The notes: generated by a model from the sequence alone, not told the origin. DNA of 64,000 nt from Acholeplasmataceae bacterium (GCA_963675245.1 OY775910.1:1088001-1152000); one strand, 5' to 3'. Positions 1 to 45,448 are shown, numbered from the stretch's first letter. A program made the numbers and translations.

Positions 1-459
1 GTTGATTCAGCAACCATTAATCCTTCACTTGAAGTGATGACAGCTTTTGGTTTAAACGTTAACGTTGATAAACCATTAAAAGATGTAAAGTCATCTGATT
101 ATGATTTTCTAGTTATTCCTGGTGGTGCATATGTCTCACAAGTCGTTGATAAAGACAAAATAATCAAAAAACTAGCAACATCGTTTTTTGATCAGGATAA
201 ATTAATATGTGCGATTTGTGCTGGTCCGAGGTTCTTAGGACAAGCTGATTTGTTAGATGGTAAAAAGTTCACGTGTTTTCCTGGTAGTGAAATCGATATG
301 CCAAAGGGTAAATATCTACCTAAAAAGAAGGTCGTGAAAGATGGCAATATCATCACAGCACGTGGTGCTGGTGTCGTTTATGATTTCGCTTATGAAATCA
401 CGAAGACACTCAAAGGAGAGCCAGCAGCAAAAGAATTATTGAAACGAATTCAGTATTAA
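1..459 (+). CDS. DJ-1/PfpI (ThiJ/YajL-like) family protein, probably 5'-truncated by window edge
   Basis: IPGG, AICAGP nucleophile-Cys motif and ITARGAG; the frame is open from position 1. Confidence 0.85.
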   Translation, partial: VDSATINPSLEVMTAFGLNVNVDKPLKDVKSSDYDFLVIPGGAYVSQVVDKDKIIKKLATSFFDQDKLICAICAGPRFLGQADLLDGKKFTCFPGSEIDMPKGKYLPKKKVVKDGNIITARGAGVVYDFAYEITKTLKGEPAAKELLKRIQY

Positions 460-460
460 A

Positions 461-486
461 AAAATGATTTGAATAAACAAATCATT
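461..486. terminator. Bidirectional intrinsic terminator between convergent genes
   Basis: AAAATGATTTG-aataaa-CAAATCATTTT inverted repeat. Confidence 0.65.
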
Positions 487-1053
487 TTAGCTTGCTAGAG
501 ATGCTAAAGCAATAACAAAGCTAATAATCGTAATAATCACTAAAAATATAACAAAACCATAGATGAAATTAACTTGTGAGGACATCTTATCAATCGCGAG
601 CGTATTTTTGATTGTAATCTGTTCAATGATCTCATTATCACTTAATGGCGTTATTATTGTAAAAGTAAATGTATCTTTATAATAACCAAATTGATTATCA
701 TAATAATACGAACTCACCCAAACACCATCAACACCATTCCTTTTTTCATAAACATGATCTGGTAGATTAGCGTAATTAGCTTTATAATAGGCTTCGATGT
801 CATCAATGATAAGTGGATCTGTGATTTGTAAAGGTTCCTTTTTAACAAAAGGTGGTAATGTTTCTAGATGAGCATATTGCTCCTGATTATCTTCAAGAAT
901 GTGTCCTTTTATTTGGAAATGAATATCACTAGGTAAATCTAATCCCTGGTAAAGCATCTCAGCATATGATGATATAAGTTTTTCATCAACAATGTCGCTC
1001 TTATGCTCAGTTAAAATACCTAATTCATTTAACGCTTTAGATTGATACATCAT
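487..1053 (-). CDS. Hypothetical protein with C-terminal membrane anchor
   Basis: 188-aa ORF, GGAGGA RBS upstream on the minus strand, hydrophobic C-terminus. Confidence 0.7.
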   Translation of the reverse strand: MMYQSKALNELGILTEHKSDIVDEKLISSYAEMLYQGLDLPSDIHFQIKGHILEDNQEQYAHLETLPPFVKKEPLQITDPLIIDDIEAYYKANYANLPDHVYEKRNGVDGVWVSSYYYDNQFGYYKDTFTFTIITPLSDNEIIEQITIKNTLAIDKMSSQVNFIYGFVIFLVIITIISFVIALASLAS

Positions 1054-1198
1054 AATTCCTCCCCGTTGTATACATTCATTTCATTCTATCATGAATGAAA
1101 AAAAGGGTCAATAAGCAGTAAAAAACAAGGATTTGACGATATCAAATACATTGATAAAACGTATTCATTATCTATTGATAAAATATTAATTGATTGTC

Positions 1199-1226
1199 TT
1201 GACATTTTATAATTTGTTGGTATAAT
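1199..1226 (+). promoter_or_regulatory. Sigma70-type promoter of tRNA operon
   Basis: TTGACA-N16-TATAAT with extended TG. Confidence 0.7.
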
Positions 1227-1247
1227 TATATGTGCTGCTAGTTTGTT

Positions 1248-1323
1248 GGCCCGTTGGAGAAACGGTTAACTCACATGCCTTTCACGCATGCATTCACGGG
1301 TTCGAATCCCGTACGGGTCACCA
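1248..1323 (+). tRNA. tRNA-Glu(TTC)
   Basis: Cloverleaf GGCCCGT...ACGGGTC-ACCA, anticodon loop CTTTCAC, GTTCGAATC T-arm. Confidence 0.97.
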
Positions 1324-1377
1324 TCTTACCAACAACGCAGTAAGCGTTATACATATGAGTTATTTAACTCAGTTTAA

Positions 1378-1454
1378 GTACCCATAGCTCAATTGGATAG
1401 AGCGCTTGACTACGGATCAAGAGGTTGGGGGTTCAAGTCCTCTTGGGTACGCCA
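1378..1454 (+). tRNA. tRNA-Arg(ACG)
   Basis: GTACCCA...TGGGTAC-GCCA, anticodon loop CTACGGA. Confidence 0.97.
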
Positions 1455-1459
1455 TTTAT

Positions 1460-1536
1460 CGGGAAGTAGCTTAGCTTGGTAGAGCGCCTGGTTTGGGACC
1501 AGGAGGTCGCAGGTTCAAATCCTGTCTTCCCGACCA
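1460..1536 (+). tRNA. tRNA-Pro(TGG)
   Basis: CGGGAAG...CTTCCCG-ACCA, anticodon loop TTTGGGA. Confidence 0.97.
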
Positions 1537-1543
1537 TTCAATT

Positions 1544-1617
1544 GCGGGCGTAGTTCATCGGTAGAACCTCAGCCTTCCAAGCTGATGAGGTGGGTTCGAT
1601 TCCCATCGCCCGCTCCA
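1544..1617 (+). tRNA. tRNA-Gly(TCC)
   Basis: GCGGGCG...CGCCCGC-TCCA, anticodon loop CTTCCAA. Confidence 0.97.
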
Positions 1618-1629
1618 TAAGAGTAGAAT

Positions 1630-1662
1630 AGGTCTGATACATTCGGTATCATACCTTTTTTT
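1630..1662 (+). terminator. Intrinsic terminator carried by cassette 1 left end (terminates tRNA operon)
   Basis: AGGTCTGATAC-attcg-GTATCATACCT followed by T-run. Confidence 0.7.
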
Positions 1663-1770
1663 ATGCCTTTATTTAGCCGTTTCTATATTTTGACATTGTA
1701 CTAAAATAGATAATTCCATAGATGTGAAATACCCTGTTTTGATACAATTTTAGTAGAAATTAAGAATCCT

Positions 1771-1820
1771 TTACACGATTATATTTCAAAATACACGATT
1801 TAAATTGGATTTACACGATT
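1771..1820 (+). repeat. 3x (T/A)TACACGATT direct repeat, 20-bp period (putative recombinase arm sites)
   Basis: Copies at 1771, 1791, 1811; equivalent triads at 3511/3531/3551 and 5584/5604/5624. Confidence 0.8.
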
Positions 1821-1978
1821 TCAAAATTTTTAGGTTATAAGAGTTCTTTTAGTGTATAATATAACGTAGTATTTGGCCGTATTCGGCATATGCAACTTTC
1901 CGTTGCTAATATGTAAGTACATCTATTCTTGAGTAGGAATGTTCTTTTATGTAGTATTGAATCAAAGGAGGAATCAAC

Positions 1979-2308
1979 ATGGAATATTTTGGATTAAAAT
2001 TACAAACTTTAAGAAAAAAAGCATCTATGTCACAAGACGATTTAGCTTCATTAATAGGTGTTAGTAGACAAGCTATTAGTAAATGGGAAAGATCAGATGG
2101 ACTACCAGATTTATACAATGTCAAAAAAATTGCAGAGGTCTTCAATATCACTATTGATGAATTAATGGATATTGAGATAAAACCAATTGATATGGACAAA
2201 GTTAAAACAAATAAATTAGCACTTGCATTTTTAACTGTACCAGGAGCAATTTTAGCGTTTTTATCAATTATTGCTTTAATCGAATTTTTAGGAGGTATAG
2301 TGTTATGA
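1979..2308 (+). CDS. XRE-family HTH regulator with C-terminal TM helix
   Basis: LRKKASMSQDDLASLIGVSRQAISKWE; AGGAGG RBS. Confidence 0.85.
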   Translation: MEYFGLKLQTLRKKASMSQDDLASLIGVSRQAISKWERSDGLPDLYNVKKIAEVFNITIDELMDIEIKPIDMDKVKTNKLALAFLTVPGAILAFLSIIALIEFLGGIVL

Positions 2309-3171
2309 TTTTTCAAGGCGGATTTACAATCTCAACATTGTTTGCTTTAGTAGTACCAGTTATAGGTGTAACATATTTATTCTCGCTATATAATCTTTAC
2401 ATAGGTAGAAATGTTTTAAAACATAAGTACATTATTCTAGGAATGAACTTTACATTCTTGTTTGGGTATATTATTATTTTGTTCAATATACCTGAATACA
2501 ATCACATTCCACTTATAGTATTATTGATTTTGATTTTAGCTATAATAGTTTTAGGTATTATTGGTGGGTTTTTGTATGAACAAGAACGAAGTCGTAATTA
2601 TATTGATAAGTATGCTCATTTAACAAAAAGATTACTTTTTGCTGTAAAATCGACATATGGATTTGTTGGTCTAGTTTTTATTGCATTCTTTTCTTATACT
2701 TTGTTGACACATGAAATTGAAGTCGTAAACAGAATTTCATATTATTTTGAACAGCCAGATAATGTTGATACTCCATTGTATGGTTATGTCGAGGTGTCTA
2801 CTGATGATGAAGTTACTATTGTTGTTGAAGGTATACATTTGGATTACTCTATTGAGGAGATTAAACAAGTTGAAGTTTACATAAACGATACCTTAGTCCA
2901 CACAAGTGTTAATATTGAAGGGTTCTTGACTAATGAAAATTACAATAGTGAGTATATCGTAATAATTGAAGAACAACCTTCTCAAGGATTTATGTTGAAT
3001 TATGTTTTCGATTATGACTTTGATTCTATGGAAGATTTTGGATCAACTGTTAATGTTAGTATAGTGCTAAGTACTCAGGATAATGTATTCACTTATGATT
3101 ATTCTAGTGTGGATTATAGTTGTGGTTATCAAAACAAGATAGTACCAATTTGGATAAAAGAAGAAAATTAG
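2305..3171 (+). CDS. Hypothetical membrane protein (~4 TM plus extracellular domain)
   Basis: 288-aa ORF, ATGA overlap with upstream HTH gene. Confidence 0.7.
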   Translation: MIFQGGFTISTLFALVVPVIGVTYLFSLYNLYIGRNVLKHKYIILGMNFTFLFGYIIILFNIPEYNHIPLIVLLILILAIIVLGIIGGFLYEQERSRNYIDKYAHLTKRLLFAVKSTYGFVGLVFIAFFSYTLLTHEIEVVNRISYYFEQPDNVDTPLYGYVEVSTDDEVTIVVEGIHLDYSIEEIKQVEVYINDTLVHTSVNIEGFLTNENYNSEYIVIIEEQPSQGFMLNYVFDYDFDSMEDFGSTVNVSIVLSTQDNVFTYDYSSVDYSCGYQNKIVPIWIKEEN

Positions 3172-3180
3172 ATGTTAGAT

Positions 3181-3375
3181 TTAGGGTTTGATGCCCAGTA
3201 TTTAATAGATAGTTGAATAACCTATTTTGATACAAAGAAATTACTACCTGAAAAATATCCGAAAATAAAAAGCCTAAACTAAGCCATAATTTAGGGGTGT
3301 AATTTTTTCGGGTGGGGGTGTAAAAATTTTGGCTAGGGGTGTAAAATTGTAGCAAAATAGGTCATACAACCCATA
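3181..3375 (+). repeat. Cassette right-end element, copy 1
   Basis: Homologous to 5262-5434; imperfect 24-bp inverted repeat 3212-3235/3347-3370 and 3x GGGGTGTAA at 3294, 3315, 3336. Confidence 0.85.
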
Positions 3376-3578
3376 AGAGTAGAATAGGTTTGATACAATT
3401 GTATCAGGCTTTTTTTTACGCTATATAGCGCCGTTTCTCCATTCGCCAATATTTTTCGAAACTAAAAAACATACTAGTTTTAAGGGGTTTTTGACATTTC
3501 GATAGAATTTCTACACGAGTACATTTTAAAAAATACGATTTAAAATGGTTTTACACGATTTATTATACAAAGATATCA

Positions 3579-3607
3579 TTGCACTTATTTTAATTCTATT
3601 GTATAAT
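3579..3607 (+). promoter_or_regulatory. Promoter of TA operon
   Basis: TTGCAC-N17-TATAAT. Confidence 0.6.
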
Positions 3608-3649
3608 TATATTAGTAAGAAAGTAGGAAAGTGAGAAAAAGGTGATATT

Positions 3650-3949
3650 ATGATTATAGAATTAAGAAAGAAATCGCAGATTACGATACCTAAAGAAATT
3701 GTTGATCAATTACATCTCCAAGAAGGAGATCATCTTGAGATATCAGTTAAGGATGGTGCAGTCCTACTAGAACCGGTGGCAATATATTCTAAATCGTATA
3801 TTCAAAAATTAGAAGATACTGTTATGAGAATCAGTGAAGAACCAACCAAGTATAATGTTGGTCCTTTTAAATCTGTGGAAGATGCTATTAAATATTTAGA
3901 AGAATCTGATGAAGAAACTGAAGCTGCAGATAAAGTTAATAAACAATGA
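3650..3949 (+). CDS. AbrB/MazE/SpoVT-family antitoxin
   Basis: SQITIPKEIVDQLHLQEGD motif; C-terminal GPFKSVEDAIKYL typical of antitoxins partnering RelE-like toxins. Confidence 0.85.
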   Translation: MIIELRKKSQITIPKEIVDQLHLQEGDHLEISVKDGAVLLEPVAIYSKSYIQKLEDTVMRISEEPTKYNVGPFKSVEDAIKYLEESDEETEAADKVNKQ

Positions 3950-4212
3950 GATACGAAATACTGTTTTCAAATAAATTTAAGAAATCTTTTTCTAAACTTG
4001 AACTTTATGAAAAGAAATTATTCTATAAAAAGCTATCTTTATTTGTTGAAAATCATCAGCATCCCAGCTTGAGAACAAAAAAGATTCAAGGTAGCGAGAT
4101 ATTGTTTGAATCTAGCATAAATATGTCAATTAGAGTTATTTGGACATTTAAGGATGAATCCCTAATATTGATGTTAGATATTGGTCACCATGATATATTG
4201 AAAAGATTATAA
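3946..4212 (+). CDS. RelE/ParE/YafQ-superfamily toxin
   Basis: FSNKFKKSF...HPSLRTKKIQG...RVIW...DIGHHD; ATGA coupling to antitoxin. Confidence 0.85.
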   Translation: MRYEILFSNKFKKSFSKLELYEKKLFYKKLSLFVENHQHPSLRTKKIQGSEILFESSINMSIRVIWTFKDESLILMLDIGHHDILKRL

Positions 4213-4216
4213 TGTT

Positions 4217-4251
4217 AAACTTTGGTTTTTTGAAAAAACCAGAGTTTTTTT
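4217..4251 (+). terminator. Terminator after TA operon
   Basis: AAACTTTGGTTTTT...AAAAACCAGAGTTT followed by T-run. Confidence 0.65.
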
Positions 4252-4374
4252 GTAGTGAATTATTTTTTGTAAAATGTTATAATGTAAGAAAAATCTTACA
4301 AAAATTGTTGTATGTACTTGGTGGATGGATTATAAGATATATAATAAAATGGAAGCATCAGAGGAGGAATGAAA

Positions 4375-5247
4375 ATGAAATTCGAAAAAAATCTAGAGTT
4401 ATTAAGAAAAAGAAAAGGATTATCTCAAGAAGATCTAGCTTTAACTATTGGTGTTTCTAGGCAAACTATTTATACATGGGAAGGCGGATTAAACTATCCC
4501 AATATTCTTATGTTAAAAAAAATTGCGAATGTACTAGATGTATCAACAGATGACTTGCTTAATGGGTATGATGTTAGTAAACTACCAAAAAGATTTAAAT
4601 CTGTTGAGCTAAACTACATATCGAAACGACAAGGTGCGATTAAGTATAAAGAAGTTCCAAATTGGTTTATACCATTAAAAGAGGAAGAAGAAGTATGTAC
4701 TGCGTTATACGATGATGGTATAAAAAGTTATTCATATCACTTAACCGTTTTGAATAAGATTCTTTTACATGATAATGAGGGATATGAAGTAATGGTAGAA
4801 GAATATGACCCCCAGTTAAACAAGACAAAAACCTATTCATTAATTATTAATGAAGTTAATGATGAACTATTCTTTTTGGGGAGAATTCACTTCGAAGATG
4901 GTATTAAATGCATTGAAACATTTAAAGATAAAAAGTTTTTGAATCACTGGGGAATTGGGAAACAGTTTTTAGGACAATCAATGATTTATGATAATGCAGA
5001 AAACTATGAACTAACCATTGATGGTAAAAAGCAAAAAGCTATTAAAATTAGCTATTTCGATCCGGATGGTACAGATGATCCAAAAAATTCATATTTTGAA
5101 GTATTTTTAAATCAAGAACTACAGTCTATATTCTGGCAAAGATATACCACAGGGGTGAAATCGAAGATTCAAATCAATATTGATGGAAAGCAATATGGTT
5201 TAGGTTACCAATCATTAACAGATAGAATAAATTTGCATGAGAATTGA
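4375..5247 (+). CDS. XRE-family HTH protein with uncharacterised C-terminal domain
   Basis: LRKRKGLSQEDLALTIGVSRQTIYTWE; GAGGAGG RBS favours the ATG at 4375. Confidence 0.8.
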   Translation: MKFEKNLELLRKRKGLSQEDLALTIGVSRQTIYTWEGGLNYPNILMLKKIANVLDVSTDDLLNGYDVSKLPKRFKSVELNYISKRQGAIKYKEVPNWFIPLKEEEEVCTALYDDGIKSYSYHLTVLNKILLHDNEGYEVMVEEYDPQLNKTKTYSLIINEVNDELFFLGRIHFEDGIKCIETFKDKKFLNHWGIGKQFLGQSMIYDNAENYELTIDGKKQKAIKISYFDPDGTDDPKNSYFEVFLNQELQSIFWQRYTTGVKSKIQINIDGKQYGLGYQSLTDRINLHEN

Positions 5248-5261
5248 TTTCTGGATAAATA

Positions 5262-5434
5262 GAAGGGTTGGATACCCTACAATAAGTTGATTAGTTGAAT
5301 AACCTATTTTGACACAAGAGAATGACTACTAAAAAAATTGAAAAACAAAACCTCTAAACTAAGCCATAATTTAGGGGTGTAATTTTTTAGGATGGGGGTG
5401 TAAAATTGTAGCAAAATAGGTCACACAACCCATA
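5262..5434 (+). repeat. Cassette right-end element, copy 2 (one 21-bp repeat unit fewer)
   Basis: Shares GTTGAATAACCTATTTTGA, CTAAACTAAGCCATAATTTAGGGGTGTAATTTTTT and GGGGTGTAAAATTGTAGCAAAATAGGTCA with copy 1. Confidence 0.85.
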
Positions 5435-6260
5435 TTGAAAGCATTAGTCAGATACGATTAAGTATCAGACCTTTTTGGTCTTAATTAAACTATTTCTTGT
5501 TTATAGTGTTGTGTTAAAATAGGTAGTTTTACAGGTAGAGAATAATCTATTTTAATACATTCTTAGTAGAAAATTTGAATCTTCAACACGATTACATTTT
5601 AAAATTCATGTTTGAAATCGATTTTACTCGATTAAAGTAAAATAACTCTTTGACTAGTATGACTTGACAAAATAACCTTTAAATCCAACAAAGAAAAAGC
5701 TATAATAGAAATAGTAATAATAAATTTTTAACATAGTATTTATAGGAGGTATTTGTAGTGAAATATGTATTTAAAGATTATGATATAAGATATTTTGCAG
5801 GAATTAAATTGCCAAATGGAATTGCAGTTGAAGATACCGATAATGAAGCAGTCCCCACATTATGGAATAGATTAGTTAGTGAAGTTTTACATCATATTCC
5901 GAACATGATCCATCCTAATAAATTCATAGGCTTAGAATGTTTTAGCCCTGACTTTAAGGAGACTAGAAGATTTGATTATTATGCTTTAGTTCAAACGGAA
6001 TCATTTGTAGATAATGAAGAACATTTTGTTGCAAAGAAACTACCAAAAGGGAAATATATTTGTTTCGAAATACTGTTTAATAATTTAGATGAAGAAATAA
6101 GGAAGTGTCATAATTATATACAATCTAATAACATTAAAGTTAATACTGAATTTGACTATACCGAGTATTTAGATGGAGAAGACTATAGTAATGAAAAAGC
6201 TAAAGTACATTTTAGTTTTTTATTGATTTAGAAGTATATGATTCAAACAAGTCATACAAC
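5430..6260 (+). mobile_element. Degenerate cassette 3 (GyrI-like gene)
   Basis: Left CCATA + GATAC/GTATC hairpin + degenerate ACACGATT triad; right end GTCATACAAC-GCATA at 6251-6265. Confidence 0.55.
5758..6231 (+). CDS. GyrI-like small-molecule/effector-binding protein
   Basis: VPTLWNRL, IGLE, FDYYA, LPKGKY motifs; AGGAGG RBS with GTG start. Confidence 0.8.
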   Translation: MKYVFKDYDIRYFAGIKLPNGIAVEDTDNEAVPTLWNRLVSEVLHHIPNMIHPNKFIGLECFSPDFKETRRFDYYALVQTESFVDNEEHFVAKKLPKGKYICFEILFNNLDEEIRKCHNYIQSNNIKVNTEFDYTEYLDGEDYSNEKAKVHFSFLLI

Positions 6261-6750
6261 GCATAAGGAAATCATATGACCGATACATTATATCGGTCTT
6301 TTTGATATATTTATAAAGCATGACTTTTTTTATGAAGATTGAAGTAATAAAGTTGTTATTACTAGAGGGTTTATAAAGTTTCTTGATAAATTACGTTATC
6401 TTATACTTTTCTAAAATGAGATTAGATGATAGAATGATTCAAAAGGAAATAGTAATTTTTAAGATAATTAATACAAAAACAAGTGTTACTTATCGGCTAG
6501 AAGAGGTCATGACATAATAAAATACTGAACCTTGGACAAGTGTTGGCTTTTTATTTCACATATAAGATTACTTTTTAGATGTCAATAGATAGAATTTTCA
6601 TATATGTAGGTATGTCATTTGAACATATCATATCTAATCTAAAGAAAATAGAATATCAAGTATTAATGATAATTGAAATAACAAAATGTTATAGAATGGA
6701 TACTAAATTAATTAAAATACAATCAACTATTAAATAGGAGAAAGAAGTTA

Positions 6751-7398
6751 ATGAAAATAGAATGGAGAAAACAGTATAAGAATCTTTATTTACCAAAAAC
6801 GAAACCGGAAATTATTGAAACAGATGAAATGGCTTACATTGTTATTGAAGGTGAAGGTAGTCCAGATAGCTTACAATTTTCACAAGCAGTTGAAGCGTTA
6901 TATGCATTATCATATAGTCTTAAAATGGCTCCAAAAAAAGGGTATAACATCGATGGGTATCAAGCATATACTGTATTCCCTTTAGAAGGTGTCTGGTGTC
7001 TGAATAAAGAAGGGATAAAGATGAATGCTAAAGGTATTTCAGCAAATGATTTAAGAGACTATTATATGTTCAAAATGATGATTAGACAACCAGAATTTAC
7101 GACTAAATCACTATTTGAAGATATCAAAAAAAATGCGTATAAAAAGAAAAAGAATGAAAGCATTCTTAAAGCTGAATATAAACGTATTAAAGAACCCATG
7201 AGTTGTCAAATGATGCATATTGGTCCATATAAGACAGAGCCCAAAACATTTAAAATAATGGAAGATTTTGTCATCAAAGAAGGATATTCTAGAAAAGAGA
7301 AATATCATAAAGAAATCTATATTTCAGATCCTAGAAAAGTTGCTCCTGATAAAATGAAAACAGTACTTAGATTTGAACTTAAAAAAGAGGTTTTATAG
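6751..7398 (+). CDS. GyrI-like domain protein (Lin2189-like subgroup)
   Basis: KNLYLPK, G.G.P, AVEALY..SY, PLEG.W, MIRQP, MHIGPY..E, H.EIYISDPR motifs. Confidence 0.85.
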   Translation: MKIEWRKQYKNLYLPKTKPEIIETDEMAYIVIEGEGSPDSLQFSQAVEALYALSYSLKMAPKKGYNIDGYQAYTVFPLEGVWCLNKEGIKMNAKGISANDLRDYYMFKMMIRQPEFTTKSLFEDIKKNAYKKKKNESILKAEYKRIKEPMSCQMMHIGPYKTEPKTFKIMEDFVIKEGYSRKEKYHKEIYISDPRKVAPDKMKTVLRFELKKEVL

Positions 7399-7619
7399 TA
7401 GGGTATTCAACCCTTAATAAAGGCTTTTCTGATGAGGTTTTATCAGACTTCTTTGTCACTTTTTTAATCCTTATCTTTTGTGAATAAAACACTTGATTTC
7501 TACGCTAATGAAATGATTAAAATCGACAAATTATTGTTGTAACAATGCATATTTGATAGAGGATGACCGTAGACTGGATTAATTATTGACTTTTTATACA
7601 ATTTATGATAAACTTTTTT

Positions 7620-7695
7620 AAAGATAAAGGCAAAACTAGAGAAATCTAGTGACGCAAAGCTAAAGGGTCTTGAATAAAGATAGCCAGTTACCAAC
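7620..7695 (+). promoter_or_regulatory. c-di-GMP-I (GEMM) riboswitch
   Basis: GGCAAAA-CTAGA-GAAA-TCTAG-TGACGCAAAGCTA-AAGGG...ATAGCCAGTTACC matches the GEMM consensus; overlapping terminator ACCAAC/GTTGGT+T-run (7690-7714). Confidence 0.9.
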
Positions 7696-7727
7696 ATTTT
7701 TTTGTTGGTTTTTTGTTTGGTGCAGAA

Positions 7728-10700
7728 ATGAAAAGAAAATTGGTTAGTAAAAAATTAATCATAATTACATTATTACTCATCCTAGTGATTAGTAATTTTG
7801 GTCTTTCATTCGCATACTGGTCAGGACATATTGAAAGTAGTGAAGTCAATGCAAACCCTTCAATTCCAATTGGTTCTTGGAATTATGAAGATGTTGCATT
7901 AACTGTCGCAACCTTCCTCAGTGATCATTCAGACGTTTTAGCACTGACAACAGAGACAGTAACCGTGAATGATAAAGCAGCGGTTGAAGCAGCACTTGGC
8001 GCATATGGTTTATTAAGTGAAGAAGCGAAAGCAGCATTAACCAGTGAAGAAGCGTTACTGATTGAGTTATTCAATGAAATCACAGCGTATGAGCATAGTG
8101 TGTTCCTAGACTTTGAAGGATATGCCTATGATTCAGGGCTGACAGGCACCGTCGAAATTGATGGTAGAACATGGTATGGAAATGGTGTCTACATATCTAA
8201 TGATCCAAGTTATGATGTATGGATGGATACGCGTTCCTTAGCATTAAAAACAGGAGCTTATTTCCAATCACAAGACTACTTCATAAATGGTATTGAAAAG
8301 ATTAGCATATACAGTGGCGCATTACACTTTGATAATGGCACAAGTTTCGCCTATAAGATAGAATATGAACTACAGTCAAATCCAGGGGTTTGGCTAACGG
8401 TACAAGAAGGTGGTTCTGATAAGATTATCAGCGTTATTTCAGGCACCCCATTAGCACATGCAGAAGTAAACGTGAATATTACTGAGGCAGTAAATATTAG
8501 ATTCACACCAGTAATTGGAAATACATCTGATTATATTAACTTAGACAATATTCGTATTTATGAACACGTGGTGACAAGCGCACTGGAAGCAGCGACTTTC
8601 AGAACAGTTTATGCAGGACCACTAGCATTGACAACAAGCACCGTACAAATCAGTGATAAAGCAGCAATTGAAGCAGCATTATCAGCCTATGATTTATTGA
8701 GTATCGATGCTCAAACAGCGTTAATAGCTGAAAAAGCATTACTTGATAGTATCATGGCAGCAATTGAAACACAAGAAGCATATGAAAGTGCAACAGAAGC
8801 AGTCGTAATCGCAGAAGGAAGTCTCTTACAAACAGATGTTGATAGCGCACAAACATTAGTTACTAGCTTACCAAATGGTACAGCGAAGACAGCGCTTCAA
8901 GACCGCTTAAATGACGTGCAAGATATCATAAACGACATAGCAACCTTCATCGGTGATCACACCAGTGTATTATCGTTAAGTGTAGGAACTGTCACAACAG
9001 GTGATAAAGCAGCGGTTGAAGCAGCTTTAGCAGACTATGCATTACTGAGTGAAAGTGTAAAGGCAGAACTCACAAATGAGAAAGCCTTACTTGATAGTTT
9101 ATTAGCAGAAATTAATAATCAAATACCGACGGCGACGTTGGTCCAAGCATTCAGAACGACTTACGCAGATACTTTAGCCTTAACCATAGGTACGGTACAA
9201 ATGAGTGATCAAGCAGCGATTGAATTAGCGTTAGAGGCATATGACGTATTAACTGCTGAAGCGAAAGCTGAACTCACAGCTGAAAAAGCATTATTGGATA
9301 GTTTAATCGTAGAAGTGATGATACTCAAAGCAACAGAAGCAGTCGTGATCGCAGAAGGAAGTCTTTTACAAGCAGATGTTGATAGCGCACAAACATTAGT
9401 TATTAGCTTACCAAATGGTACAGCGAAGATAGCGCTTCAAGATCGACTTGATGATGTCCAAAATATGATTGATCATTTAATAACAATTGCTGAAGAGGTC
9501 GCAACCTTCCTCAGTGATCATTCAGACGTTTTAGCACTGACAACAGAGACAGTAACCGTGAATGATAAAGCAGCGGTTGAAGCAGCACTTGGCGCATATG
9601 GTTTATTAAGTGAAGAAGCGAAAGCAGCATTAACCAGTGAAGAAGCGTTACTGATTGAGTTATTCAATGAAATCACAGCGTATGAGCATAGTGTGTTCCT
9701 AGACTTTGAAGGATATGCCTATGATTCAGGGCTGACAGGCACCGTCGAAATTGATGGTAGAACATGGTATGGAAATGGTGTCTACATATCTAATGATCCA
9801 AGTTATGATGTATGGATGGATACGCGTTCCTTAGCATTAAAAACAGGAGCTTATTTCCAATCACAAGACTACTTCATAAATGGTATTGAAAAGATTAGCA
9901 TATACAGTGGCGCATTACACTTTGATAATGGCACAAGTTTCGCCTATAAGATAGAATATGAACTACAGTCAAATCCAGGGGTTTGGCTAACGGTACAAGA
10001 AGGTGGTTCTGATAAGATTATCAGCGTTATTTCAGGCACCCCATTAGCACATGCAGAAGTAAACGTGAATATTACTGAGGCAGTAAATATTAGATTCACA
10101 CCAGTAATTGGAAATACATCTGATTATATTAACTTAGACAATATTCGTATTTATGAACACGTGGTGACAAGCGCACTGGAAGCAGCGACTTTCAGAACAG
10201 TTTATGCAGGACCACTAGCATTGACAACAAGCACCGTACAAATCAGTGATAAAGCAGCAATTGAAGCAGCATTATCAGCCTATGATTTATTGAGTATCGA
10301 TGCTCAAACAGCGTTAATAGCTGAAAAAGCATTACTTGATAGTATCATGGCAGCAATTGAAACACAAGAAGCATATGAAAGTGCAACAGAAGCAGTCGTA
10401 ATCGCAGAAGGAAGTCTCTTACAAACAGATGTTGATAGCGCACAAACATTAGTTACTAGCTTACCAAATGGTACAGCGAAGACAGCGCTTCAAGACCGCT
10501 TAAATGACGTGCAAGATATCATAAACGACATAGCAACCTTCATCGGTGATCACACCAGTGTATTATCGTTAAGTGTAGGAACTGTCACAACAGGTGATAA
10601 AGCAGCGGTTGAAGCAGCTTTAGCAGACTATGCATTACTGAGTGAAAGTGTAAAGGCAGAACTCACAAATGAGAAAGCCTTACTTGATAGTTTATTAGCA

Positions 10701-11654
10701 GAAATTAATAATCAAATACCGACGGCGACGTTGGTCCAAGCATTCAGAACGACTTACGCAGATACTTTAGCCTTAACCATAGGTACGGTACAAATGAGTG
10801 ATCAAGCAGCGATTGAATTAGCGTTAGAGGCATATGACGTATTAACTGCTGAAGCGAAAGCTGAACTCACAGCTGAAAAAGCATTATTGGATAGTTTAAT
10901 CGTAGAAGTGATGATACTCAAAGCAACAGAAGCAGTCGTGATCGCAGAAGGAAGTCTTTTACAAGCAGATGTTGATAGCGCACAAACATTAGTTATTAGC
11001 TTACCAAATGGTACAGCGAAGATAGCGCTTCAAGATCGACTTGATGATGTCCAAAATATGATTAACGTGCTAGCTGCTGCTAATGTTGATGATTTGATCA
11101 CGGCTATACCTAGTGTGGGAGAAATCTCACTTAGCGATGAATCGCAAATTGTCGCAGCAAGAGTTGCATATGATATTTTAACGATAGCACAACAATCATT
11201 AGTCACAAATGAAGCAATATTATCATCAGCAGAAACGCAACTGACCTCATTACAAACTGCTACTGCTGCAGTTGTGAAAGCAGAAGAAAGTCTCTTACAA
11301 GTAGATGTCAATAGCGCACAAACATTAGTTACTAACCTACCAAATGGCACATCAAGAATAGCACTTCAAAATAGGTTAAATGCTGTTCAAGATGTGATTG
11401 ATGTTGAATCGGCAAGAACAATCATCATTAATTATTTTGCTGCAAACTCAGTTGTAGTATCAAGACTCAATAGCAATGCTATAAAAGAAAATGCAGTCTT
11501 GACAAAATCAAATGAAATCGTCAATGGGCTTGGTGTTAACATTACGATCACAAATTCTGTTTATAACAGTCGAACTAGTTCAACTTACACCATACAAGTT
11601 GTGAAGAATGGTGCAAACACATCGTTTGTTGTAGTTGTTACATTTACAAGATAA
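7728..11654 (+). CDS. Large exported surface protein with SipW-type signal-like N-terminus, Ala-rich helical repeats and duplicated beta-sandwich domain
   Basis: Signal peptide ending SFAYWS...IPIGSW; internal 531-aa period duplication. Confidence 0.8.
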   Translation: MKRKLVSKKLIIITLLLILVISNFGLSFAYWSGHIESSEVNANPSIPIGSWNYEDVALTVATFLSDHSDVLALTTETVTVNDKAAVEAALGAYGLLSEEAKAALTSEEALLIELFNEITAYEHSVFLDFEGYAYDSGLTGTVEIDGRTWYGNGVYISNDPSYDVWMDTRSLALKTGAYFQSQDYFINGIEKISIYSGALHFDNGTSFAYKIEYELQSNPGVWLTVQEGGSDKIISVISGTPLAHAEVNVNITEAVNIRFTPVIGNTSDYINLDNIRIYEHVVTSALEAATFRTVYAGPLALTTSTVQISDKAAIEAALSAYDLLSIDAQTALIAEKALLDSIMAAIETQEAYESATEAVVIAEGSLLQTDVDSAQTLVTSLPNGTAKTALQDRLNDVQDIINDIATFIGDHTSVLSLSVGTVTTGDKAAVEAALADYALLSESVKAELTNEKALLDSLLAEINNQIPTATLVQAFRTTYADTLALTIGTVQMSDQAAIELALEAYDVLTAEAKAELTAEKALLDSLIVEVMILKATEAVVIAEGSLLQADVDSAQTLVISLPNGTAKIALQDRLDDVQNMIDHLITIAEEVATFLSDHSDVLALTTETVTVNDKAAVEAALGAYGLLSEEAKAALTSEEALLIELFNEITAYEHSVFLDFEGYAYDSGLTGTVEIDGRTWYGNGVYISNDPSYDVWMDTRSLALKTGAYFQSQDYFINGIEKISIYSGALHFDNGTSFAYKIEYELQSNPGVWLTVQEGGSDKIISVISGTPLAHAEVNVNITEAVNIRFTPVIGNTSDYINLDNIRIYEHVVTSALEAATFRTVYAGPLALTTSTVQISDKAAIEAALSAYDLLSIDAQTALIAEKALLDSIMAAIETQEAYESATEAVVIAEGSLLQTDVDSAQTLVTSLPNGTAKTALQDRLNDVQDIINDIATFIGDHTSVLSLSVGTVTTGDKAAVEAALADYALLSESVKAELTNEKALLDSLLAEINNQIPTATLVQAFRTTYADTLALTIGTVQMSDQAAIELALEAYDVLTAEAKAELTAEKALLDSLIVEVMILKATEAVVIAEGSLLQADVDSAQTLVISLPNGTAKIALQDRLDDVQNMINVLAAANVDDLITAIPSVGEISLSDESQIVAARVAYDILTIAQQSLVTNEAILSSAETQLTSLQTATAAVVKAEESLLQVDVNSAQTLVTNLPNGTSRIALQNRLNAVQDVIDVESARTIIINYFAANSVVVSRLNSNAIKENAVLTKSNEIVNGLGVNITITNSVYNSRTSSTYTIQVVKNGANTSFVVVVTFTR
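7905..11063 (+). repeat. Near-exact 1566-bp intragenic tandem duplication (7905-9470 and 9498-11063)
   Basis: Identical at every position compared by eye; period 1593 bp; 27-bp unique spacer. Confidence 0.95.
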
Positions 11655-11691
11655 TTGTTATTAGCTTTGTTTGTTATTTAATATAACATTA

Positions 11692-11726
11692 AAAAAGTAG
11701 ACATTTATTCGGAGGTCTACTTTTTT
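11692..11726 (+). terminator. Intrinsic terminator
   Basis: AAAAAGTAGAC...GTCTACTTTTTT. Confidence 0.75.
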
Positions 11727-11822
11727 ATATAAATAATGAAATTTAAAAGTATTTAGACATGTTATACTTATTGTATAAACTATGTGAACATGTAGATATA
11801 GTCATCATTTTTGGAGAAAGAC

Positions 11823-12464
11823 ATGAAAAAATCAAAAACAATAATCAATATATTCGTTTATGCATTAGGTATATTTATGACAGGATTAGCGATAAATTTA
11901 TTAATTCGTAGTTCATTTGGTGCAGGGGCTTGGGATGCGGTTGCTGAAAATTTCAGCCAATTGGTTCATATAGAACTTGCATATGCATCAGCATTTTTTA
12001 GTCTTATCATTTTAACGTTTGTTATCATCTATAATAAGAATATTAAATTCTTAATTACTTTAATCCCCATCGTAGGTATTTTCTTATCGATTTATTTTTG
12101 GGATATTATTGTTTTAAACACTTATTTTCCACCTAACTTTTTACTTAAGTCTTTGTTCTTTGTTGTAGGTTTAGTCAGTTTGACGTTTGGATTAGCTGCC
12201 ATTGTCTCATCTACTTATCCTGCCATGGTGTATGATGAACTCACCATCGCGATGATGAAGATCTTAAAGATTAATAGTTTTTTTAAAACAAGAATTATCA
12301 TCGAAATGACAGCGGTCATCATTGGTACGATCATTGGATTTATTGCGGGTATTGGATTTGGTGTGGTTGGTTTAGGCACATTGTTGATGGCATTTGTCAT
12401 TGGACCGATGATCTCATTCCATATGATGTGGTTATCAAAAGTCCTAAAACAAAAGCGTGTTTAA
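11823..12464 (+). CDS. YczE/YyaS/YitT-family membrane protein
   Basis: Multi-TM; FGAGAWD and VGLGTLLMAFVIGPMI motifs. Confidence 0.75.
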   Translation: MKKSKTIINIFVYALGIFMTGLAINLLIRSSFGAGAWDAVAENFSQLVHIELAYASAFFSLIILTFVIIYNKNIKFLITLIPIVGIFLSIYFWDIIVLNTYFPPNFLLKSLFFVVGLVSLTFGLAAIVSSTYPAMVYDELTIAMMKILKINSFFKTRIIIEMTAVIIGTIIGFIAGIGFGVVGLGTLLMAFVIGPMISFHMMWLSKVLKQKRV

Positions 12465-43523: not shown

Positions 43524-44495
43524 TTGAACATACATCCGTTAGATTCATTAATCATGCAATATCTTGCAGAAAAAGATATTACAAGAGGTTCATTCGAATT
43601 ATATGACACCATTTTGAAACAATTCACGACATACCTAAAAGAACATCACATACTATTCGCGAAGACAAGTGATATCATCAATTATCGACAATGGAAAAGA
43701 AATCAAGGGTATTCTACGCGTTGGATTTATCATCAAATGAGTGCAATTAAGGGACTCTATCAATATTTAAAATATAATCAAAAAAGATTAAATCTATCAG
43801 AAGAATATGCAAACGACATTACGGAACTCATAAAAAACGAACGTATTAAAAAAGGTATTTCAAAACCAATATTAACGATTGATCAAGCAAAACATTTAAT
43901 ATTATGTAGTAAAGAAAACCGAAAGTATATTTGGCATTATCGTGATCACGCAATGCTTTATCTGATGTTAACGACAGGTATGAGAAGTGTTGAATTAAGA
44001 CGTGCTAAAAAGAAAGACTTAAAAATAATTGAAAACCAATCAATATTATATATACAAGGTAAAGGTAGACAAATAGCAAATGAGTATGTCAAAATCACGC
44101 CAAGTGTTAAGCGTGCTATTGATGAATATCTAAAGAAAAGAAAAGATAAGAATCCTTATCTATTTGTATCACATTCTAAGCATACGGATACGCCATATCT
44201 GTCAAGAACATTTTTCACTAGAATGCTTAAACGTGTATTATCATCATGTGATTTAACTTATACAAAGATAAAACCCCACTCTTTAAGACATACTGCTGCC
44301 ACATTTAACCTACTTAGAGGTGGTTCCCTAGAACAGACCAAACAGTTCATGAGACACACTAATATATCTACGACACTTGTCTATGCTCATCATGTGAAAC
44401 GATTGAAGGATGACTCGGTGAATCAAATTGAAAACTATATTTTAAATGAAGATATATATCATTATCATGATGAATACATCATCATTGATCTATGA
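43524..44495 (+). CDS. Tyrosine recombinase (XerC/D-like)
   Basis: RDHAML..TGMRSVE, GKG, HSLRH, MRH, LVY. Confidence 0.92.
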   Translation: MNIHPLDSLIMQYLAEKDITRGSFELYDTILKQFTTYLKEHHILFAKTSDIINYRQWKRNQGYSTRWIYHQMSAIKGLYQYLKYNQKRLNLSEEYANDITELIKNERIKKGISKPILTIDQAKHLILCSKENRKYIWHYRDHAMLYLMLTTGMRSVELRRAKKKDLKIIENQSILYIQGKGRQIANEYVKITPSVKRAIDEYLKKRKDKNPYLFVSHSKHTDTPYLSRTFFTRMLKRVLSSCDLTYTKIKPHSLRHTAATFNLLRGGSLEQTKQFMRHTNISTTLVYAHHVKRLKDDSVNQIENYILNEDIYHYHDEYIIIDL

Positions 44496-45448
44496 GAGAT
44501 GAGGAAAAGATAATGGAAGCACATCCGCTAAAAGAATTATGCGAACGATATATTTTAGATCATAATTTTTCTGAATCGACTATCAATTCGTATCGAATAG
44601 TATTTAAGAAATATATAAATTTTTTGATAGAACATGATATTGAATACGCGAAAACAAGCGATGTTATTAAATACCGTGAAAATAAGAGGAAAAAAGGTTA
44701 TTCGAGCCACTATATCTATGTGCACATCTCTGCGTTAAAAGGGTTATATCGATATTTAAGACATAATCGATCTCGTTTTAATCTACGAGATGATTATGCA
44801 TATGATATTATGATGCCTATAAAAAATGAACGAATTAAGTATCATATAAAAAAACCAATTTTAACGATTGAACAAGCTAAACATATGATCCTTCATACGA
44901 AGAGAAATAGAACGTCAATTTGGCAATACCGCGATCACGCAATTATTTATTTGATGTTAACTGCTGGCATTAGAAGATATGAAATTAAAGAAGCGAAAAA
45001 AGAAGATTTTCAAATAGTTCATGGTGAATGTTTGTTATATATAAGACATAATAACGAAAGAACAAATGATGATTTTGTTAAAATCGCACCGGGCGTCAAT
45101 GATGCAATTAACGATTATTTATATATGCGTAAAGATGACAACCCCTATTTGTTTGTGACGACTAAAAACACGTCACCTAACCAACATCTATCTAGAACAT
45201 TCTTTAGAGAGATGTTTAGAAGAGTCATTAAAACATGTGGCTTAGAAAATATGGGAATTACACCACACTGTTTAAGACACACAGCGGGAGTGATCAACCT
45301 ACTTAGAGGCGGTTCATTAGAACAGACAAGACAACTTTTAAGACATAAAGATATTAAATCGACCATCATCTATAAAGAGCATATCGAACGGATGAATGAT
45401 GATTCAGAATTACAAATCGAAAAATTCATACTCGGAGACAAGGGTTAA
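44492..45448 (+). CDS. Tyrosine recombinase, tandem paralog
   Basis: RDHAII..AGIRRYE, HCLRH, LRH, IIY. Confidence 0.9.
   Translation: MRDEEKIMEAHPLKELCERYILDHNFSESTINSYRIVFKKYINFLIEHDIEYAKTSDVIKYRENKRKKGYSSHYIYVHISALKGLYRYLRHNRSRFNLRDDYAYDIMMPIKNERIKYHIKKPILTIEQAKHMILHTKRNRTSIWQYRDHAIIYLMLTAGIRRYEIKEAKKEDFQIVHGECLLYIRHNNERTNDDFVKIAPGVNDAINDYLYMRKDDNPYLFVTTKNTSPNQHLSRTFFREMFRRVIKTCGLENMGITPHCLRHTAGVINLLRGGSLEQTRQLLRHKDIKSTIIYKEHIERMNDDSELQIEKFILGDKG

Follow-up and report, generated by a model that had tools for sequence, protein, structure and literature searches.

The 64,000-nucleotide (nt) stretch analysed here, called the window below, is G000:C1:1088001-1152000 of Acholeplasmataceae bacterium GCA_963675245.1 (OY775910.1), whose genome (G000) is a single 1.63-Mb contig with a G+C content of 33.9%. 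Positions are those of the window unless another sequence is named. Close to its start, a Glu-Arg-Pro-Gly tRNA cluster is closed by tRNA-Gly(TCC), and the CCA end of this gene (1615-1617) anchors a tandem array of small gene cassettes. These are bounded by a junction module of ~400 bp, found directly after the tRNA CCA at 1615 and again at 3371 and 5430. The left part of the module (L) begins with CCA, and its right part (R), ~130-180 bp in size, sits ahead of CCA and was not described in an earlier note on this DNA. The array comprises the following features:

1544-1617, + strand: tRNA-Gly(TCC) (ARAGORN; Rfam tRNA).
1615-1863, + strand: L module 1, attL-type, the tRNA end joined to the left end of the element (nhmmer E 3e-54; fold -13 kcal/mol), with CCA, P' half-site overlapping a hairpin at 1630-1657, 24-mer-like site at 1724-1747, three TACACGATT repeats at 1772, 1792 and 1812, then a promoter-like stretch.
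1979-3171, + strand: cassette 1 cargo, an XRE-type helix-turn-helix (HTH) gene with a C-terminal membrane segment (1979-2308; Pfam HTH_3) and a membrane protein of 288 amino acids (aa) (2305-3171).
3184-3373, + strand: R module 1 (nhmmer; repeats; inverted repeat I3; conserved in relatives), with T-arm-like motif at 3184-3196, left 24-mer at 3212-3235, three GGGGTGTAA repeats at 3294, 3315 and 3336, right 24-mer, which is the P half-site, at 3347-3370, and CCA at 3371-3373.
3371-3610, + strand: L module 2 (nhmmer E 3e-47; terminator scan; fold -16 kcal/mol), with CCA, hairpin at 3386-3411, triad at 3512-3560 and promoter-like stretch.
3650-5247, + strand: cassette 2 cargo, a MazE/AbrB-type antitoxin-like gene (3650-3949; Pfam), an 88-aa open reading frame (ORF) (3946-4212), a terminator-like hairpin (4217-4247) and a 292-aa XRE-domain protein (4369-5247).
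5264-5432, + strand: R module 2 (nhmmer E 9e-39; repeats), with T-arm-like motif, left 24-mer at 5294-5317, two GGGGTGTAA repeats at 5374 and 5395, P half-site at 5406-5429 and CCA at 5430-5432.
5430-5706, + strand: L module 3 (nhmmer E 1e-47), with CCA, hairpin, decayed triad at 5585-5634 and promoter-like stretch.
5758-6231, + strand: cassette 3 cargo, a GyrI-like/Cass2 small-molecule-binding protein of 157 aa (Pfam PF14526 and PF06445).
6245-6298, + strand: decayed junction 4 (72% to the reference copy of repeat family D1; terminator scan; fold), with the P half-site remnant AAACAAGTCATACAAC, GCA at 6261-6263 and a related hairpin at 6278-6298.
6751-7398, + strand: last unit, a GyrI-like protein of 215 aa (Pfam), whose right border is not defined.

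Profiles made from copies of the two parts (nhmmer) matched L at 1615, 3371 and 5430 (E values of 3e-54 to 3e-47) and R at 3198-3374 (2e-28) and 5279-5433 (9e-39), so the module recurs far beyond chance. L opens with CCA and, ~14 nt further on, a GATAC/GTATC hairpin followed by a T-run; another ~60 nt separate the latter from a 24-mer-like site, after which come three TACACGATT repeats and a stretch resembling -35 and -10 boxes. As the earlier note had stated, its first 19 bp, CCATAAGAGTAGAATAGGT, are exactly the same at 1615-1633 and 3371-3389. The same note had seen the TACACGATT triad in three copies; two are clear (1772-1820 and 3512-3560, with a 20-bp spacing) and the third (5585-5634) is decayed. 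Taken alone, TACACGATT is not rare, with 23 exact copies in the genome versus ~20 expected from base composition by our own arithmetic. The hairpins that follow the junctions (GATAC/GTATC with a T-run at 1615, 3371 and 5430, and a related one at 6261) fold at -9.9 to -16 kcal/mol with z-scores of -2.2 to -6.4, and a simple terminator scan flags two of them (3386-3411 and 6278-6298). Every L has its -35/-10-like stretch, but a promoter scan found no more promoter-like sites than in shuffled sequences (38 versus 41 +/- 6).

In R, a tRNA T-arm-like motif comes first; two or three GGGGTGTAA repeats with a 21-bp spacing then lie between the arms of a 24-bp inverted repeat, and the end reads AAAATAGGTCATACAAC-CCA. 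The two repeat motifs of the module share TTACAC, in opposite orientation. Long forms of R (3184-3235, 5266-5317 and relatives) start with the T-arm-like GGGTTCGATACCC, followed by 11 nt, GA and a half-site-like 24-mer. By our own count, this spacing equals that of a real tRNA-CA-L junction within 1 nt, and short forms of R are devoid of such a start. The start of long R looks like an embedded pseudo-attL, which may be a fossil or a built-in attL. No Rfam family matched L or R, and the view of R as a folded structure was rejected, with no compensatory changes seen on inspecting the listed copies.

The remainder of the array is more degraded. Of junction 4 (6261), no more than the final ~18 bp of R and the related hairpin are left, with neither GGGGTG repeats nor triad. 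At ~7400-7450, only a hairpin was found (about 7428-7447, by folding), with no R end, no CCA core and no match to the R and L profiles. Hence, among the junctions proposed in the earlier note, those at 1615, 3371 and 5430 stand, the one at 6261 is a decayed copy and the one at ~7400-7450 is not supported. The cargo named there also agrees with the Pfam assignments (XRE and membrane protein, XRE, and two GyrI-like proteins), apart from its toxin-antitoxin (TA) pair, which is half supported: the antitoxin-like gene is recognized and the 88-aa ORF of cassette 2 has no family match in Pfam. All cargo genes of the array lie on the + strand, and no recombinase domain was detected by Pfam in the scanned ORFs of window positions 1-12000. 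The profile matches, the tRNA call and the Pfam results thus agree with the claim of a tandem, tRNA-anchored, recombinase-less array with junctions resembling attachment (att) sites. Past the array, a c-di-GMP-I riboswitch (7619-7695; 67.8 bits for a gathering score of 35) precedes a gene of 1313 aa (7713-11654), whose product is a repetitive surface-type protein with a long internal duplication; the riboswitch belongs to ordinary chromosome.

Five L, four R and one weak R were found in the whole of G000. An L follows the CCA of tRNA-Leu(GAG) at genome position 1254700 and is followed by a cassette encoding HTH-Fic and GNAT proteins, an R-L junction and a GntR-ABC (ATP-binding cassette transporter) cassette. 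At tRNA-Ser(GGA) starts an 8-kb island that is closed by R, and the hairpin after this R is a near copy of the post-tRNA hairpin. In addition, a decayed hybrid copy lies at genome positions 1599470-1599600, behind an ArsR and P-type ATPase gene pair. In the surrounding segment (G000:C1:1599400-1599620, minus strand), the junction repeats alternate GGGGTGCTAAA and TTTACACGATT in three rounds, followed by three GAGTAAAACTCCGT. The end of this segment matches the left border of a serine recombinase element of another genome (G003), which suggests that R ends exist in a second family.

A DNA search with window positions 3196-3615 as query (E<=0.001) in 61 genomes, G000 included, matched the module in 37 of them: all 10 genomes of the genus, 26 of the 36 other members of the family and some from three further families of the order. 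The matches are mostly clustered in arrays, usually behind tRNA genes, and a few genomes match only the hairpin part. In all tRNA-adjacent cases examined, L begins at the tRNA CCA. The tRNA hosts are Gly(TCC) (G008 and G003), Ser(CGA) and Ser(GGA) (G055), Leu(TAG) (G014, G059, G009 and G017), Leu(CAA) (G014), Leu(GAG) (G007) and Trp (G059). Unoccupied tRNA genes carry unrelated terminators, as seen for tRNA-Leu(TAG) in G000 and for tRNA-Gly(TCC) in G001, G002 and G006, which indicates that the hairpin comes with the element. The genes downstream of tRNA-Gly(TCC) also differ in the last three genomes. The two comparisons advised in the earlier note, a search for the module in the genome and its relatives and a comparison of the cargo behind tRNA-Gly(TCC), thus found a module that is usually arrayed behind tRNA genes and a locus that varies among relatives.

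Furthermore, the exact junction pattern was found in 111 stretches of a collection of species-representative genomes, the vast majority labelled Acholeplasmataceae, Mariniplasma, Izemoplasma/Izimaplasma or 'Tenericutes/Mycoplasmatota bacterium'. The few matches in metagenome-assembled genomes with other labels are possibly binning errors. A plasmid collection gave a single record, CP017949.1, with matches in six places, which resembles chromosome-type DNA. A phage collection gave no DNA match to the module.

The cargo of the arrays of six relatives includes regulators, GNATs, GyrI-like proteins, Fic proteins, ABC and metal transporters and groES-groEL, and their only mobile-element enzymes are transposases of insertion sequences (IS). 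The groES-groEL genes (locus L050, 7479-9383, on G009:C14) are in a cassette position, between an R-L junction and a partial R. In G007, an L located away from any tRNA heads a type I restriction-modification (R-M) locus (locus L064, 6082-14761; G007:C1:1686082-1694761), in which two hsdS genes flank a tyrosine recombinase gene, as in shufflons. Moreover, several cassettes are shared between genomes. Window positions 1772-3182 are 80% identical to CP017949.1 (locus L068, 20329-21737), where they form an internal cassette after an R-L junction. The GntR-ABC cassette found behind tRNA-Leu(GAG) in G000 has 73% identity over 2.2 kb with a cassette of the tRNA-Gly array of G008, and window positions 3613-4208 (antitoxin-like pair) are 76% identical to locus L029, from another genus. 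Arrays of many units of 0.8-7 kb recur across genera. We consider it probable that the window carries an orphan array of recombinase-less cassettes, belonging to a family of tRNA-end-targeting elements similar to the staphylococcal cassette chromosome (SCC) and movable only in trans.

Several candidates were considered for the enzyme. No serine recombinase was detected in G000 by a family-model search, and the six tyrosine recombinases of this genome are all unlinked to the module. Among these, XerD and XerC were assigned by gene context and ~70% orthologues, and are the only recombinases of G000 with clear orthologues among those fetched from other module-bearing genomes. The integrases at genome positions 128407 and 993346 were dismissed, as they belong to ordinary islands at tRNA-Lys and tRNA-Gln that do not carry the module. 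The tyrosine recombinase pair at 43524-45448 was also rejected as the cassette enzyme, since it has close orthologues in only nine of the 61 genomes, with no L or R nearby. These two adjacent genes, ~49% identical to each other, are followed in most of the eight orthologous loci inspected by the same HTH regulator gene, which heads a polysaccharide gene cluster, and may constitute a phase-variation or locus-specific recombination system. An HUH single-strand transposase was rejected for lack of any Y1_Tnp in G000. The rve matches correspond to an ordinary IS with a 356-aa transposase, present in three identical copies (G000:C1:1253139, 303128 and 1449739), one of them ~1.2 kb upstream of the occupied tRNA-Leu(GAG).

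A tyrosine recombinase acting in trans, as in integrons or cis-mobilizable elements (CIMEs), would agree with two of these observations: XerC and XerD, which might themselves be the enzymes, have clear orthologues in the other genomes compared, and the triple direct repeats flanking the core resemble the arm-type sites of a lambda-like attP. We nevertheless judge this explanation very unlikely. None of the six tyrosine recombinases of G000 lies near the module, and the pair at 43524-45448 has the narrow distribution and constant neighbour described above. The tRNA and the R end have only CCA in common, and no segment of the tRNA is duplicated. A cognate tyrosine integrase was not seen on any L/R-bounded element examined: the only tyrosine recombinases met were that of the R-M shufflon and the integrase of an insert in G014 that we read from its sequence as related to Tn916. 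For an involvement of XerC/XerD similar to that of integrative mobile elements exploiting Xer (IMEX), a loose dif-like pattern gave one match, far from the skew maximum and unlike the junction. The mechanism advanced in the earlier note, a tyrosine recombinase of the type assumed for CIMEs and mobile insertion cassettes (MICs), is therefore not supported; the recombinases bounded by the same ends in relatives are large serine recombinase (LSR) pairs. A recombinase flanked by these ends, which the note had suggested looking for, does exist in relatives and viral contigs, where it is of the paired serine type, and is absent from G000.

The lead to serine recombinases came from viral contigs with the R-end pattern, several of which have two adjacent LSR genes upstream of R. 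The products, LSRa (~435 aa) and LSRb (~525 aa), both have Resolvase, Recombinase and Zn_ribbon_recom domains (Pfam). A small HTH gene precedes the pair, often together with a gene encoding a SHOCT_2 protein. Among NCBIfam models, CcrB, XisF, CcrC and CcrA score best, each far under its cut-off (111-133 bits for CcrB, cut-off 900; 72-81 bits for CcrA, cut-off 700). R or a variant R lies downstream of the pair, on the same strand and at ~2-11 kb, in eight of the 10 loci examined (G007, G014, G017, G050, G009, viral contigs L106 and L089, and CP017949.1). It was not seen at G003, nor at G059 within the 9 kb searched down to the contig start. Five of the 10 loci start at a tRNA CCA.

For instance, contig 38 of G017 carries a complete element of ~17 kb, from the CCA of tRNA-Leu(TAG) to R, followed by the next hairpin. 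It contains, in this order, a hairpin, ACGATTA repeats, a type I R-M system, an AAA_25 protein, an HTH gene, LSRa, LSRb, two genes and R. No other recombinase was recognized in this element (five ORFs were compared with Pfam and the rest with recombinase seeds only). In G007, tRNA-Leu(GAG) is joined to L and followed by ~44 kb including a prophage and the pair, then by an R-L junction and at least four further junctions of recombinase-less cassettes. In G014, tRNA-Leu(CAA) is followed by a related prophage with the pair, in which LSRb is interrupted, and then by an R-L junction. The elements of G059 and G009 start at tRNA-Leu(TAG), and that of G009 ends in a variant R. In G050, the two viral contigs and CP017949.1, the pair is followed by cargo and then by R. 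The stretch of ~17 kb that splits the prophage LSRb of G014 (loci L108/L109; G014:C1:1356001-1390000) contains further pieces of R and L. We read part of it as an element related to Tn916, which has an integrase of its own and a ribosomal-protection gene similar to tet(M).

These autonomous elements, which have accessory or defence genes beside both ends, bring in another explanation. Each unit of the array could derive from its own full-length phage or island, inserted at the tRNA by the same serine recombinases and later deprived of its interior, so that the cassettes were never mobile by themselves. Internal deletion of such elements would indeed leave cargo between L and R, decay is visible in junction 4 and in the last unit, and G000 has no recombinase to move cassettes. 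However, other species have the same small cassettes, with both ends and 73-80% identical, in different array positions and behind different tRNAs, and multi-unit arrays of 0.8-7 kb are present in several genera. Convergent independent decay to one unit is improbable; vertical inheritance followed by rearrangement is possible. Accretion and decay on their own are thus an unlikely origin for the array, and we retain that of cassettes movable in trans. In agreement with trans movement being plausible, the locus varies and cassettes occupy other positions and other tRNAs in other genomes. Arrays that combine one serine recombinase pair with several recombinase-less L/R cassettes are found in G007, G050, G014 and CP017949.1.

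The core of the site was delineated from 44 distinct R-L junctions aligned on CCA. Their conservation is high from about -36 to +27. Among the 37 centres scanned, dyad symmetry has its maximum exactly at the CA of CCA, with 12.9 of 25 positions being symmetric versus at most 10.5 at the 36 other centres. Shuffled junctions gave 7.2 +/- 0.3 symmetric positions, a comparison that is not a probability since the junctions are related. The symmetric positions cluster at 3-9 (inner block) and 16-25 (outer block); on the right side, the outer block doubles as the left arm of the terminator hairpin. The core is thus an imperfect palindrome of ~52 bp, TTGTAnCAAAATAGGTCATACAACC-CA-TATTGAAAGCATAGGTTTGATACAA. 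The attP sites of large serine integrases are made of two half-sites of ~25 bp around the crossover dinucleotide. By analogy, the junction core looks like a serine-integrase attP centred on CA, and we propose the CA at 1616-1617 as the crossover dinucleotide in the window.

One may also imagine that the module is not a recombination site at all. It would then combine terminator, insulator and promoter in one conserved unit, its repeats being operators of a shared regulator; homologous recombination would have spread it, and tRNA genes would be incidental hot spots. The architecture of L, in which the first gene of each cassette is preceded by a terminator hairpin, an evenly spaced repeat triad and a promoter-like stretch, would fit such a unit, as would the two repeat motifs that alternate like operator arrays at genome positions 1599470-1599600. 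It would leave unexplained that, for seven tRNA species, the boundary coincides exactly with the CCA, that the palindrome is centred on CA, that whole prophages are bounded by the same ends and that the module is absent behind unoccupied tRNAs. We regard it as the least probable of the explanations examined, a very doubtful one, and favour site-specific recombination by the LSR pair.

According to this preferred model, elements of wall-less Bacilli (with Acholeplasmataceae, Mariniplasma and Izemoplasmatales labels) would insert exactly at the 3' CCA of tRNA genes. The autonomous members would be prophages and defence islands of ~17-55 kb that carry the small HTH gene, often the SHOCT-domain gene, LSRa and LSRb. 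In the circular form, R would abut L to generate attP, the palindrome flanked by accessory repeats, and the recombinase pair would exchange strands between its CA and that of the tRNA CCA. Insertion would leave the tRNA intact, with the hairpin of the element becoming its terminator, and repeated insertions at one tRNA end would build tandem arrays with internal R-CA-L junctions. The small cassettes, which have an L providing terminator, repeats and their own promoter, and an R, but no recombinase, would need the recombinase pair in trans for their mobility. Since G000 has no serine recombinase, its array is presumably frozen at present.

In public sequence data, the contigs from the strain's own runs span the array, with breaks at R modules. 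Another sample of this organism gave identical pieces at low depth. In two metagenomes, related modules adjoin different content, and both cassette 1 and cassette 2 are present at about 94-98% identity. A search for the free-phage form, an R-L junction with phage genes on both sides, among 79 viral loci with LSRb relatives gave no usable result.

Various points weigh against this model. (i) The link between the LSR pair and the module is only positional, and at the genome level their co-occurrence is modest: with a family model that counts any large serine recombinase, 24 of the 61 genomes have one along with the module, 13 (G000 among them) have the module alone, nine the recombinase alone and 15 neither. 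(ii) Among 79 loci with viral relatives of LSRb, 28 have at least 3 kb downstream, and R was detected in only eight of these 28, always downstream of the LSRb relative and on the same strand; among the misses, one has R 13.7 kb downstream, beyond the flank, and another has an R cut by the contig end. The R profile was made from only four copies. (iii) The contigs of the strain's own runs, which cannot show rare forms, gave no joint indicative of recombination, a circle or an empty site. (iv) Serine-integrase sites need only about 40-50 bp, so that ~350 bp of additional conserved arms with triple repeats are unexplained by analogy with them. (v) The internal junctions of the arrays are attP-like on both sides, and to our knowledge a canonical serine integrase would not recombine two attP-like sites. 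(vi) Seven tRNA species are used, and the virgin targets have no conserved right half-site. Catalysis by the LSR pair, crossover at CA and mobilization in trans are proposals, whereas the anatomy of the array, its tRNA anchor, the distribution of the module in relatives, the shared cassettes, the linkage of the LSR pair to the same ends and the palindrome around CA were observed directly. The arms, with their two alternating repeat motifs, point to accessory DNA-binding factors that the usual serine-integrase scheme does not include.

A broader hypothesis, which we find tentative and on the whole rather doubtful, is that of a general 'tRNA-end integron' based on the LSR pair. Cutting at the universal CA would make nearly any tRNA gene a platform, and each cassette would bring its own terminator, promoter and repeat arms. 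The pseudo-tRNA end that long R joins to a half-site, landing pad or fossil, would let arrays extend and new cassettes arise, and phages, defence islands and cassettes of 1-2 kb would form one continuum across Acholeplasmatales and Izemoplasmatales.

In the literature covered, which included PMC8632094 and PMC12205969, no description of this system was found. The closest likeness is with SCC and SCCmec and their CcrA and CcrB recombinases: two adjacent LSR genes of unequal size in relatives, insertion at the 3' end of a conserved gene, defence and stress cargo, and tandem arrays in which one recombinase-bearing cassette has recombinase-less neighbours with the same sites (G007, G050, G014 and CP017949.1). 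Neighbours of SCCmec that have no ccr and are bounded by the same att sites were experimentally shown to be excised in trans (PMC11470126). Differences from SCC are nonetheless clear. Instead of rlmH, several tRNA genes are targeted, at their CCA end, and the recombinases are not Ccr equivalogs (72-133 bits versus cut-offs of 700-900). Whole prophages are among the autonomous members, the hosts belong to the wall-less Bacilli, and the junction of ~400 bp has triple repeats, its own terminator and a promoter-like stretch.

Integrons and clusters of attC sites lacking integron-integrases (CALINs) are arrays of co-oriented unrelated cassettes, each closed by a conserved site; they persist without integrase, and their cassettes are mostly promoterless and depend on a common promoter. 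The array of G000 resembles them by its co-oriented cassettes, conserved sites, absence of recombinase and GyrI-like/Cass2 cargo. It differs from them by the lack of an IntI-type tyrosine recombinase and of attI, the anchor being a tRNA end. Nor does its site resemble attC: each 24-bp arm of R keeps its sequence from genus to genus, left and right arms differ in a fixed manner, and no compensatory changes were seen on inspection. Each cassette also has its own promoter-like sequence and terminator. Hence, the integron-like platform imagined in the earlier note is kept as a cassette array with conserved sites, without its tyrosine enzyme and with terminator and promoter-like sequences that would depart from the integron plan.

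With the large serine integrases of phages, the LSR pair shares its domain set, and the junction shares an imperfect palindrome of ~50 bp with inner and outer blocks around a central dinucleotide. The differences are the presence of two recombinases instead of one, the long conserved arms, the many tRNA targets and the attP-like internal junctions. Tycheposon sites duplicate part of the tRNA, and these elements mostly use tyrosine recombinases; in contrast, only CCA is common to tRNA and site here. The likeness is that cargo-carrying elements accumulate at tRNA genes, as in Prochlorococcus (10.1101/2020.12.28.424599). In both cases, some of the elements are degenerate and devoid of recombinase. 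Unlike tyrosine islands of the CIME type, the elements examined here show no duplicated 3' stretch of tRNA and no cognate tyrosine integrase.

If the LSR pair does act at the CA of CCA, these elements would form another lineage of SCC-like cassette chromosomes, independent of the staphylococcal one, in wall-less bacteria that are free-living and have small genomes. Temperate phages and defence islands would then be linked with minimal cassettes for stress or regulation in one exchange system, which would help to explain the flexible accessory gene pool of reduced genomes, at least three tRNA loci being occupied in this 1.6-Mb genome. The junctions would also offer compact, naturally multi-target serine-integrase sites for study. 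In its logic, the system matches SCC composite islands and resembles integrons, and it differs from both in target, recombinase lineage, phage members, hosts and site architecture.

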